This document shows positions 2,398 through 54,544 of a DNA stretch of 64,000 nt, piece after piece. A model generated the notes under the pieces. That model saw only the letters and a list, made by a program, of their open reading frames with translations, did no database searches and was not told where the DNA came from. The position numbers and the translations under genes are program-made. Source of the DNA: a bacterium. Its GTDB lineage: Bacteria > Patescibacteriota > Minisyncoccia > Moranbacterales > UBA2206. How positions within the stretch are numbered: the stretch's first letter is position 1; every line of letters begins with the position of its first letter. The DNA is taken from positions 3,124-67,123 of the forward strand of contig JAJYGF010000004.1 in the NCBI GenBank assembly GCA_021785125.1. Reading direction: 5' to 3'.

Positions 2398-2404
2398 AAA
2401 TTTG

Positions 2405-2476
2405 AGCGGGTAACGGGAGTCGGACCCGTATCTCTACCTTGGCAAGGTAATATAATAGCCGCTATACGATACCCGC
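2405..2476 (-). tRNA. tRNA-Gly (anticodon GCC)
   Basis: Reverse complement GCGGGTA..TTACC TTGCCAA GGTAG..ACGGG TCCGACT CCCGT TACCCGC T folds as cloverleaf; anticodon arm identical to E. coli tRNA-Gly(GCC) core ACCTTGCCAAGGT; T-loop is atypical (TCCGACT). No CCA encoded. Confidence 0.6.
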
Positions 2477-2530
2477 CTTCGCTATAGCTTCGGCGGGCAA
2501 GCCCGCTTAAACCTAGCATATTCATTTGTG

Positions 2531-2843
2531 TGCCTGGAGTCAGAATTGAACTGACGACACGAGGATTTTCCTCTATATTTGTCTTGGGTTTCCCACAAGG
2601 ATCGGACTATTTCTTCACCGCTCGGTAACCGAGTACGGTGTTAGGCGCTCACGCAAGATTATTGTTGGGACTCACTCGCTAGTCTCTACACCTTCTTCAG
2701 GATCAAGGCCCGCTGAAGCTTGGCTCGAGATTGCCATATCTGTGAAGATTTAGGCTTCCTCGAATTCACCTAATTTTTAAGACTGCATTACTGCAGAATG
2801 GACCGAAAACCAGTCCTCTGCTCTACCACTGAGCTATCCAGGC
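2531..2843 (-). tRNA. tRNA-Phe (anticodon GAA) interrupted by an intron in the anticodon loop; 5' exon 2812-2843, 3' exon 2531-2570
   Basis: Joined exons GCCTGGATAGCTCAGTGGTAGAGCAGAGGACT|GAAAATCCTCGTGTCGTCAGTTCAATTCTGACTCCAGGCA is near-identical to E. coli tRNA-Phe; exons separated by 241 nt. Confidence 0.75.
2571..2811 (-). ncRNA. group I self-splicing intron (ORF-less, ~241 nt) in tRNA-Phe anticodon loop
   Basis: 5' splice site after U33 with exon GGACU pairing to intron GGUCC (U.G wobble, P1); P2 hairpin CUGCA-GUAA-UGCAG (GNRA loop); R-like GUAGAGACUAGC and S-like AAAUAGUCCG elements forming P7 (GACUA/UAGUC); intron ends in G before exon GAAAAUCCUC. Boundaries +/-2 nt. Confidence 0.7.
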
Positions 2844-2864
2844 AATTCGTGACTCATTTATCTG

Positions 2865-2937
2865 TGCGCGCTGAGGGACTCGAACCCCCAACCCTCTCGG
2901 TGTAAACGAGATGCTCTAGCCATTGAGCTAAGCGCGC
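2865..2937 (-). tRNA. tRNA-Val (anticodon TAC)
   Basis: GCGCGCT TA GCTC AATGGCTA GAGC A TCTCG TTTACAC CGAGA .. GGGGG TTCGAGT CCCTC AGCGCGC A. Confidence 0.8.
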
Positions 2938-2954
2938 ATAATATTTTAAAATTG

Positions 2955-3038
2955 TGGGCGAAAGAGGACTCGAACCTCCAAGGGATTACTCCCACAAGCA
3001 CCTCAAGCTTGCGCGTATACCAGTTCCGCCATCCGCCC
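2955..3038 (-). tRNA. tRNA-Leu (anticodon GAG), long variable arm
   Basis: GGGCGGA..CAAGC TTGAGGT GCTTG + variable stem-loop GGGA-GTAA-TCCC + GGAGG TTCGAGT CCTCT TTCGCCC A. Confidence 0.8.
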
Positions 3039-5827: not shown

Positions 5828-7294
5828 TCATTTGACCCAGTGCTTTTCTTTTATCTCCTTGTCATCCTCTTCCTTCTTTTCTTCTATCTTTTCTTTCGCC
5901 ATCTCGCGGAGTTTTTCCAAATCTTTCTTATCCAATTCCTTTGCGCGCCTCAGAAGATATTCACGATCATTTTTTGAAGCGTCTTCGATGACTTCAGAAA
6001 GCAGGACATCCAGGATCGCCCCGATCTTCGGACCGGGCTTCAATCCCAATTCTTCCATCAGGTCCGAACCGTTGATCTTGAGCATCTTCACCGAAACGGC
6101 ATCGTGCGAAAGCTTGTCGATCATATATTCCAGATGTCGCAGCTTGTACGGCTTGGCTTTCGGCGTGCCGGATCCGAGACGGTCCGCGATTCGCACATTG
6201 ATCAGATCCTTCATATTTTCCAGCCCGACTTTTTTGATCAATCTTCTGACCGACGCATCGCCGACTTCCTCGGGATTGTAATAGAACATATGATTGTCGA
6301 CCAGAAGAGAAACTTTTCCGATAATTTCATTGGAAAAACGCAATCTTTCCAAGATTTTCCGAGCCACCCTGGCTCCGACATGGTCATGGTTGTAGAAAGT
6401 CGATAATTGGCCCTCTCCCCGTTTGGTCTGCGGCTTGGCAACGTCATGCAAAAGAGAGGCCAGGCGCACATCCAATTTTTTGGAAGGACAATATTTCAGC
6501 GCCAGGATGGAATGTTTGTAAATCGTATAGATATGATGCCGATTTTGCGCGACGCCCACGCCCTTCTCCAATTCGGGAATGATATGATCCAGAAGCCCCG
6601 CTTCATGCAGCATATCGATGCCTTCAGCCGGATTGTCGGATAGGATTATTTTGGCCAACTCGTCCCTGATCCTCTCTTGCGAAATATGCTTCATGTGTCC
6701 ATGATATTTTTTGATAGCTTCGAAAGTTTTTTCTTCGATGGAAAATCCCAATTCCGCATGGAAACGGATCGCGCGCATCATGCGGAGCGCGTCTTCATCG
6801 AAACGTTCGTGGGAATCTCCGACCGTCCTGATCATTTTATCCGCTATATCTTTCCGGCCGTGATACGGATCTATAATTTCAAAATCCGAATCATGGACGC
6901 GCAAGGCGACCGCATTCATCGCAAAGTCCCTCCTCGACAAATCCTCTTGCAAATTTTTAGCAAATTTAATTTCATCCGGCCTGCGCTTGTCGGAATATTT
7001 CGATTCGATACGAAATGTCGTTACTTCGATGACATCATATTCCCTTTCGGGATTGCCATTGGGTGCAAATTTTTCAACCTTCACTCCGACCGTTCCGAAT
7101 TCATTCTCATAGAAACTGTCCGGAAAGATCTTTTGGACCTCTTCCGGCTTGGCTGAAGTCGTGATATCCCAGTCTTTGGGAATCCGGTCCATAATCAAAT
7201 CACGCACACACCCTCCGACGATGTATGCTTCAAATCCGCCTCCTTCTATTTTTTTCAGGACGAGACGAACCTGCTTGGGGATTTTTTTGATCAT
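5828..7294 (-). CDS. cca: CCA-adding tRNA nucleotidyltransferase / poly(A) polymerase family with HD domain
   Basis: GGCVRDLIMDRIPKDWDITT head-domain motif; HDVAKP HD motif; located among tRNA genes that lack encoded CCA. Confidence 0.8.
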   Translation of the reverse strand: MIKKIPKQVRLVLKKIEGGGFEAYIVGGCVRDLIMDRIPKDWDITTSAKPEEVQKIFPDSFYENEFGTVGVKVEKFAPNGNPEREYDVIEVTTFRIESKYSDKRRPDEIKFAKNLQEDLSRRDFAMNAVALRVHDSDFEIIDPYHGRKDIADKMIRTVGDSHERFDEDALRMMRAIRFHAELGFSIEEKTFEAIKKYHGHMKHISQERIRDELAKIILSDNPAEGIDMLHEAGLLDHIIPELEKGVGVAQNRHHIYTIYKHSILALKYCPSKKLDVRLASLLHDVAKPQTKRGEGQLSTFYNHDHVGARVARKILERLRFSNEIIGKVSLLVDNHMFYYNPEEVGDASVRRLIKKVGLENMKDLINVRIADRLGSGTPKAKPYKLRHLEYMIDKLSHDAVSVKMLKINGSDLMEELGLKPGPKIGAILDVLLSEVIEDASKNDREYLLRRAKELDKKDLEKLREMAKEKIEEKKEEDDKEIKEKHWVK

Positions 7295-54256: not shown

Positions 54257-54544
54257 CCCAGCACTAACTTTCACTCCGTCGTATGCATTATGTATATATT
54301 ATAAAAAATGAAATTGATGAACTGTATTATGGATGCACAAACAACCTAAAGAAAAGATTTTTTGAGCATAATAGCGGCGAATCTTTTTCTACCAAGAATC
54401 ATGAATGGAAATTAGCCTATTATGAGGCTTATTTAAGGGAAGAAGATGCCTGGAATCGTGAAAAACAACTAAAAAGGCATGGACAAGCTTTGGCTCAACT
54501 AAAGCGCAGAATCAAAAAATCTTTAAGTGAAAGTTAGTGCTGGG
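54257..54544 (+). mobile_element. 288-bp unit: GIY-YIG gene bracketed by perfect 19-bp inverted repeats (CCCAGCACTAACTTTCACT / AGTGAAAGTTAGTGCTGGG)
   Basis: Left arm 54257-54275 ends 7 nt before ATG 54283; right arm 54526-54544 contains the stop codon; arm core GCACTAACTTT is shared with the 50160/50264 inverted-repeat pair. Confidence 0.5.
54283..54537 (+). CDS. GIY-YIG nuclease family protein (second paralog)
   Basis: VYIIKNEIDELYYGCTNNLKKRFFEHNSG GIY-YIG motif. Confidence 0.8.
   Translation: MHYVYIIKNEIDELYYGCTNNLKKRFFEHNSGESFSTKNHEWKLAYYEAYLREEDAWNREKQLKRHGQALAQLKRRIKKSLSES

Follow-up and report, generated by a model that had tools for sequence, protein, structure and literature searches.

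A tRNA-Phe(GAA) gene in the window (the whole 64-kb stretch of DNA analysed here) is split in its anticodon loop by 241 nt, which a sequence-only reading took for a group I intron lacking an open reading frame (ORF). The locus raises the question of whether this insert is a working intron or a remnant, to which family it belongs, and whether a GIY-YIG nuclease gene close by has any part in its history. Based on the anatomy of the gene, the fold of the insert and its relatives in other genomes, we conclude that it is very probably a functional, ORF-less, IA-like intron, inserted between U33 and G34 of a tRNA-Phe(GAA) gene that is probably the only one in the genome. The host is an uncultured member of the Patescibacteria, with Moranbacteria/Moraniibacteriota metagenome-assembled genomes as nearest named relatives.

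The interrupted tRNA-Phe gene

When the exons are joined (GCCUGGAUAGCUCAGUGGUAGAGCAGAGGACU/GAAAAUCCUCGUGUCGUCAGUUCAAUUCUGACUCCAGGCA), ARAGORN recognizes the 72-nt product as a canonical tRNA-Phe(gaa), and when introns are allowed the genomic sequence is returned as Phe i(33,241). The two exons of a canonical tRNA-Phe(GAA), 241 nt apart, are borne out in coordinates and anatomy by ARAGORN and Rfam. The tRNA was further said to nearly match that of E. coli, which was generous: a manual count gave ~84% identity (61 of 73 aligned columns). By ARAGORN and Rfam the cluster comprises four tRNA genes, those for Leu-GAG, Val-UAC, Phe-GAA and Gly-GCC, one fewer than the five-gene operon that had been described. 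A gene for a CCA-adding enzyme with PolyA_pol and HD domains lies at 5828-7294 on the minus strand, near several tRNA genes that encode no CCA, including tRNA-Phe.

The interrupted gene is missed by the Rfam tRNA model, and also by ARAGORN unless introns are allowed. This matters for annotation, since a genome such as this one could be mis-scored as lacking tRNA-Phe because ARAGORN without the intron option skips the gene. A search of the 64-kb window with ARAGORN found no second tRNA-Phe gene. The tables of Nakagawa et al. (PMC13011429) hold one tRNA-Phe in each of the Patescibacteria genome rows examined, and an interrupted and an intact tRNA-Phe together in one genome are rare in Patescibacteria.

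Identity and structure of the intron

The covariance-model check that the sequence-only reading had proposed gave a clear match: RF00028 (Intron_gpI) aligns with 2821..2582 of the minus strand at 66.8 bits (E = 9.5e-15), above the gathering score of 50 and over the full length of the model (positions 1-253 of 253). Together with ARAGORN and the covariation seen in a 67-sequence alignment (below), this match fully supports the reading that tRNA-Phe(GAA) is interrupted after U33 by a group I intron with no ORF. The intron begins and ends with G. Positions 2571-2811 overlap no ORF of at least 50 aa, and the intron, at just 241 nt, contains no endonuclease ORF of the kind that marks a mobile intron bearing a homing endonuclease.

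A secondary structure was derived by hand from the Rfam alignment and by inspection (Table 1). Every helix of the core was located, in the P3-P8 domain as well as in the P4-P6 domain, together with the P3/P7 pseudoknot, and the wobble pair at the splice site is U2812.G2804. All of the hallmarks named in the sequence-only reading were present, namely the GGACU/GGUCC P1 with its U.G pair, the GUAA-capped P2, GAGACUA...UAGUCC as P7 and the terminal G.

Table 1. Features of the tRNA cluster and of the intron in tRNA-Phe(GAA), in window coordinates.
Feature	Position	Strand	Basis or remark
Host tRNA cluster	2404..3038	-	ARAGORN and Rfam
tRNA-Leu(GAG)	2954-3038	-	Cluster member
tRNA-Val(UAC)	2864-2937	-	Cluster member
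tRNA-Phe(GAA) with intron	2531-2843	-	Cluster member
tRNA-Gly(GCC)	2404-2476	-	Cluster member
tRNA-Phe 5' exon, 32 nt	2812..2843	-	Acceptor and D arms and 5' anticodon stem, ends C32-U33; ARAGORN
Group I intron, 241 nt, IA-like, ORF-less	2571..2811	-	RF00028, 66.8 bits; ends from ARAGORN and the U-1/omegaG rule
tRNA-Phe 3' exon, 40 nt	2531..2570	-	Anticodon GAA first, discriminator A73 last, no encoded CCA; ARAGORN
P1 exon strand GGACU	2812..2816	-	U2812 serves as U-1 at the 5' splice site
P10 guide GGUUUUC, intron nt 1-7	2805..2811	-	Complements 3' exon GAAAAUC, 2564-2570
P1 intron strand GGUCC, nt 8-12 of the intron; internal guide sequence	2800..2804	-	Structure model and covariation
P2 hairpin CUGCA/UGCAG, GUAA (GNRA) loop	2783..2796	-	Covariation; also in single-sequence fold
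P3 5' strand UUAGGUG	2767..2773	-	Structure model and covariation
P4 (UCGAGG/UCUCGA) around P5/P5a hairpin	2725..2763	-	Covariation and single-sequence fold
P6/P6a hairpin; L6 triplet GGG at 2709-2711	2690..2724	-	Structure model and covariation
P7 5' strand GAGACUA, bulged A	2680..2686	-	Invariant, 100% paired
P7.1 hairpin GCGAG/CUUGC, 17-nt loop UGAGUCCCAACAAUAAU; L7.1 CCC at 2667-2669	2653..2679	-	Covariation
P3 3' strand CGCCUAA	2641..2647	-	Structure model and covariation
P8 hairpin	2618..2638	-	70% paired, gappy region; single-sequence fold
P7 3' strand UAGUCC	2604..2609	-	Structure model and alignment
P9 hairpin, GAAA (GNRA) loop	2583..2599	-	Covariation and single-sequence fold
omegaG, last intron nucleotide	2571	-	G in 72 of 72 cleanly mapped listed homologues

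By the Michel-Westhof criteria, the hallmark of IA introns is reportedly an extra pairing, P7.1, with or without a further P7.2, between the 5' strand of P7 and the 3' strand of P3. The classical bacterial tRNA introns, found in tRNA-Leu(UAA), tRNA-fMet, tRNA-Ile(CAU) as well as tRNA-Arg(CCU), are of the IC3 type. Between P7 and the 3' strand of P3 the window intron has one extra co-varying hairpin, P7.1 (27 nt), and a 5-nt linker; P7.2, a second hairpin in the same interval, was not found in this intron. The classical IC3 type was ruled out, since hairpin and linker keep P7 from being directly followed by the 3' strand of P3. We therefore describe the intron as IA-like, by its predicted P7.1 without P7.2, a designation that leaves IA1, IA2 and IA3 undivided. 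Nakagawa et al. (PMC13011429) assign nearly all Patescibacteria tRNA introns to IA and none to IC.

Covariation across 67 introns

The window copy was aligned by MAFFT with 66 homologues, giving 67 introns with 10 nt of exon on each side (alignment A1). Under the P1-P10 model, 92.9% of the cells form standard pairs, compared with 34-51% in a control where the 3' partners were slid by 1-3 columns. Compensatory changes affecting both sides were found at 44 of 70 pairs, and none of 500 shuffles equalled any of the observed measures. Pairing and compensation were high in P2 (99% paired; all 5 pairs compensatory), P3 (99.6%; 4 of 7), P7.1 (100%; 3 of 5, under a loop that is invariant across the family) and P9 (98.6%; 6 of 6). 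All six pairs of P6a show compensatory changes, which were also seen in P4 and P6. Support in the MAFFT alignment was weaker for P5 (87% paired) and P8 (70%), and P7 yields no covariation evidence because it is invariant. The minimum free energy fold of the single sequence recovers P2, P3, P4, P5, P7.1, P8 and P9; it adds no statistical weight, because its energy is no better than that of shuffled sequences (z = -0.62).

In P1 and P10, the two helices that join intron to exon, the pairs co-vary with the sequence of the anticodon arm. The U-1.G pair is present in 67 of 67 aligned introns, while the remaining pairs of P1 co-vary between GC and CG and between AU and CG. P10 is 92% paired, with UA/CG covariation of 34 versus 31. 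Two sub-lineages can be told apart: the one that includes the window has exons GGACU...GAAAAUC and the guide GGUUUUC-GGUCC, and the other has exons GCCCU...GAAGAGG and the guide UCUUU-GGGGC. P1 and P10 of the window intron pair perfectly with its own exons. Such covariation with the exons is expected only if splicing is selected for, which argues that the guide has been kept for splicing. Thus we conclude, on the evidence of the alignment, that the guide sequence appears to be under selection to splice its own exons.

A predicted loop-loop contact between L6 and L7.1

Additionally, the GGG of L6 (2711-2709) complements the CCC of L7.1 (2669-2667) on the minus strand, a three-base loop-loop pairing. 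For the comparison across introns the L6 loop was delimited by stems of Watson-Crick pairs only, as G.U closing pairs otherwise absorb the G residues of the loop. The Watson-Crick complement of the L7.1 triplet stands at the 5' side of L6 in 81 of 87 introns. Where the triplet is not CCC, 9 of 14 introns have an exact match (GCC/GGC, AUC/GAU, CUC/GAG, UCC/GGA); permutation gave 3.4 on average, and only 1 of 2000 permutations reached nine. Introns with a CCU triplet, including those of the Asn type, open the L6 loop with AGG in 16 of 18 cases. The predicted contact is supported by covariation and might represent a signature, so far undescribed, that marks this IA sub-class.

Distribution of the intron

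A scan of one-genome-per-species contigs for the P7-P7.1 motif returned at least 119 loci, most of them in metagenome-assembled genomes (MAGs) of Patescibacteria. According to ARAGORN at least 74 lie inside tRNA-Phe genes; at least 72 of these map cleanly to the pattern ...CU/intron...G/GAA and two were mis-parsed. Among the matches listed, the best identity of an intron to the window copy is ~79%. The other listed loci are mainly tRNA-Asn(GUU) genes interrupted at 35/36, and those called Thr(UGU) 33/34 are probably Asn too, because a two-base mis-call of this kind is described by Nakagawa et al. (PMC13011429). Judged from these hits, the tRNA-Phe host appears to be common among draft genomes, with at least 72 species.

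Several side observations concern the members of this set. Introns of the GCCCU/GAAGAGGC sub-lineage end 7-15 nt after P7 and have no P9 hairpin (A1 columns 301-325; L002, L011, L049, L086); those of the GGACU/GAAAAUCC sub-lineage, the window copy included, have a GNRA-capped P9. In locus L061 (400-713) the junction departs from CU/...G/GAA and would give the anticodon AAA or require a base other than U at -1, and L060 (4460-4768) is a tRNA-Phe-like intron locus, mis-parsed by ARAGORN, that is also off the junction pattern. Both could be degenerate copies or annotation artefacts. The window itself is identical to an ENA metagenome contig (ERZ27236914 k141_543273).

The P7-P7.1 motif was also found in group I introns of 16 IMG/VR viral contigs (L147-L162), none of them in tRNAs. 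These introns occur 2-4 per contig within ~3 kb, in capsid-like ORFs (e.g. L149 911-3711, L153 10252-11902), and in two contigs a gene that is capsid-like by eye is interrupted three or four times. Some have ORFs of their own that by eye are HNH-like (L149 2510-3280) or GIY-YIG-like (L153 10371-11156). The presence of the P7-P7.1 core in introns of capsid-like phage genes, some of them with an endonuclease-like ORF, hints at exchange between phages and Patescibacteria.

The gene neighbourhood (CCA enzyme, RluD-like pseudouridine synthase, L19 and tRNA cluster) allows the window to be compared with syntenic loci. Those that bear the intron include loci of Moranbacteria/Moraniibacteriota and other Patescibacteria MAGs, and among the matches listed their identities to the window are at most 77% for L19, at most 54% for RluD and 67% for the CCA enzyme. 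A metagenome scan for the spliced junction, in which an exact exon match was demanded, found 25 uninterrupted tRNA-Phe genes with the identical anticodon arm (L122-L146). About 10 of the 25 lie in the same Leu/Val/Phe/Gly cluster beside L19 and RluD (e.g. L137, L144, L129, L124, L139). With L19 at 76-88%, RluD at 61-67% and the CCA enzyme at 82%, the intron-less syntenic loci are nearer to the window than any intron-bearing locus among the matches listed. The intron thus appears patchy among near relatives, through loss or gain, in scans that are biased, one by the exact exon match and the other by its reliance on listed matches. Because both searches carry such a bias, we claim no direction.

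The neighbouring GIY-YIG reading frame

The ORF at 2039-2281 on the minus strand encodes 80 aa, of which residues 1-71 match the GIY-YIG domain PF01541 (59 bits). The protein consists of the catalytic domain alone and has no DNA-binding domain. Its gene was reported to follow the tRNA operon by 250 bp. It does start 250 bp after the 3' end of tRNA-Phe, but that interval also holds tRNA-Gly as well as a terminator-like palindrome. L121, a strain variant found in another sample, has a tRNA cluster and intron that by eye read the same as in the window; right behind the terminator region of tRNA-Gly the two sequences part, and L121 has other genes in place of the GIY-YIG ORF. Homologues of the ORF lie near tRNA-Phe in 3 of 72 listed related loci, which by a rough estimate is the chance level for a common multi-copy small gene. 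A paralogue at 54283-54462 on the plus strand, 52 kb away and 35% identical over 62 aa, suggests that the family is multi-copy in this genome.

The link between intron and nuclease gene that the sequence-only reading had implied does not hold up, given a protein reduced to its catalytic domain, its absence from L121 and its presence at 3 of 72 listed loci. An identity as an I-TevI-like homing endonuclease was considered for the ORF and rejected, as it has neither a DNA-binding domain nor, at the loci compared, an association with the intron. Based on these comparisons we regard the GIY-YIG ORF as evidently unrelated to the intron. The region beside the cluster has features of its own. A long palindrome (~2364-2408) is made up of the 3' end of tRNA-Gly together with the terminator, and GAGCG...CGCTCA repeats come next; L121 (4160-4300) leaves the window sequence at ~2300, just downstream of the palindrome. 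This looks like a strain-level indel hotspot beside the tRNA cluster.

Discussion

Following the established group I pathway, from which we infer the mechanism, the Leu-Val-Phe-Gly cluster would be transcribed as a precursor in which the guide GGUCC pairs with the exon GGACU as P1 and presents the U-1.G wobble. A free guanosine in the P7 pocket would attack the 5' splice site. The guide segment GGUUUUC would pair with the 3' exon GAAAAUC to form P10, and the terminal G241 (G2571) would take over the G site from the free guanosine, allowing the 3'-OH of the 5' exon to attack the 3' splice site. Ligation at CU/GAAAA would restore the anticodon loop CUGAAAA, after which the CCA-adding enzyme (gene at 5828-7294) would supply CCA. 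Three nucleotides of the anticodon stem take part in P1, so that this helix and the mature stem must alternate.

Two other readings would change where splicing occurs or whether it does. Since a G repeats at both boundaries, the true splice site could be 34/35, after G34; either placement results in the same mature tRNA, and in about half of the listed homologues ARAGORN sets the anticodon upstream of the intron, which it returns as i(34) or i(35). However, group I chemistry uses a U at -1, and the 33/34 placement provides the U.G pair in every one of the 67 aligned introns. Furthermore, 17 of 72 listed homologues begin the intron with A and not G, and for these the ambiguity is gone because of that first base. 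The annotation in Nakagawa et al. (PMC13011429) is also 33/34, and we give a 34/35 site next to no credence. Conceivably, too, the intron is a remnant in decay that no longer splices; the gene it interrupts would then be a pseudogene, and an intact tRNA-Phe gene would lie elsewhere in the genome. Such a history would fit the lack of an endonuclease gene in the intron and the intron-less alleles of close relatives, and the window covers only 64 kb of the genome. Against it, all core elements are intact and match positions invariant across the family, P1 and P10 suit their own exons without a mismatch, and L121 has a cluster that is identical by eye. Moreover, a single tRNA-Phe is usual in the Patescibacteria of the published tables (PMC13011429), and genomes that hold both allele types are rare. 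A dead remnant is therefore very unlikely, and a functional intron between U33 and G34 is strongly preferred.

The remaining alternative accepts splicing and holds that the intron is actively mobile, mobilised in trans by the free-standing GIY-YIG nuclease in a split arrangement of intron and homing endonuclease. The GIY-YIG domain of the nearby ORF, the patchy presence of the intron in close relatives, and the GIY-YIG or HNH ORFs carried by phage relatives of the intron family could all be taken in its favour. In contrast, the 80-aa product is a catalytic domain only, the ORF is absent from L121 even though cluster and intron there match the window, and homologues accompany tRNA-Phe at just 3 of 72 listed loci. 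The paralogue 52 kb away fits a common multi-copy small gene, and tRNA-Gly and the palindrome stand between ORF and intron. We consider mobilisation by this nuclease highly improbable and retain the reading of a functional intron that is independent of its neighbour.

The sequence-only reading knew of no tRNA-Phe host and held insertion after U33 to be uncommon, and neither view can be kept. A group I intron at 33/34 of tRNA-Phe(GAA) is already present in Tables 1 and S3 of Nakagawa et al. (mSystems 2026, PMC13011429; preprint 2025, 10.1101/2025.07.03.662931), and at least 72 further tRNA-Phe genes with homologous introns were found here. The published host is Doudnabacteria GCA_016699995.1, whose 211-nt intron was found by the authors' pipeline, ARAGORN and tFind alike according to that paper. 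These authors describe 33/34 as a site that is often interrupted, with tRNA-fMet as the typical case, and their Table S5 has a Phe(GAA) intron at 31/32 in Elusimicrobiota. The number of tRNA types interrupted by introns is given as raised from 4 to 21 in the preprint of Williams (2020, bioRxiv 10.1101/2020.01.27.920355). The window intron shares with the published family the tRNA-Phe(GAA) host, the CU/G...G/GAA junction of 72 listed homologues and an identity of ~75% to the published member. By these features it is best regarded as an additional member of that family, neither a new host nor a new site.

As such, the window provides one more example of a published pattern, in which IA-type introns are kept in essential single-copy tRNA genes of Patescibacteria. 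Two points are mildly new: the tRNA-Phe host type appears to be abundant in draft genomes, and its presence among close relatives is patchy. The 33/34 intron of tRNA-Phe might even be among the most widespread tRNA introns of Patescibacteria and still be moving between lineages without an endonuclease of its own. We put this forward as a tentative and on balance doubtful suggestion, which arises because the tables of Nakagawa et al. (PMC13011429) give one 33/34 case in complete genomes against at least 72 species here, and because the closest syntenic relatives among the matches listed have no intron.

Comparison with known systems

The nearest described relative is the tRNA-Phe intron of Doudnabacteria GCA_016699995.1, which resembles ours in its host tRNA, its 33/34 site and its absence of an ORF. 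Both have the same core, including AGAGACUAG, the stem of P7.1 together with the loop UGAGYCCAACAAUAAU, and also GCGCC, with ~75% identity over the aligned positions. Our intron is the longer of the two (241 versus 211 nt), and its Moranbacteria-like host is of another class of Patescibacteria. Its sub-lineage is the one whose anticodon arm reads GGACU/GAAAAUCC, and its P9 is capped by a GNRA loop, whereas the Doudnabacteria copy apparently has no P9 hairpin in the pairwise alignment.

The introns of tRNA-Asn(GUU) as well as tRNA-Asp(GUC) in Patescibacteria come from the same phylum, were found by the same motif scan, and share the IA-type core and the P7.1 loop motif. They are located at 35/36 of other host tRNAs, in contrast to 33/34 for ours, and some tRNA-Asn copies carry HNH endonuclease genes while ours carries none. 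Patescibacteria introns of these two tRNAs are reported by Nakagawa et al. (PMC13011429) to self-splice in vitro.

Phage group IA introns of the T4 td/nrdB and Twort type have the IA architecture in common with ours, but their hosts are protein-coding genes. Similarly, the introns of the viral contigs share the P7-P7.1 motif with ours but do not lie in tRNAs, and some appear to encode HNH or GIY-YIG proteins. The classical IC3 introns of bacterial tRNAs, like ours, interrupt the anticodon loop, are small and mostly ORF-less, and have the U-1.G pair and omegaG; that of tRNA-fMet also shares the 33/34 position. Our intron differs from all of these classical introns in the additional P7.1 between P7 and the 3' strand of P3.
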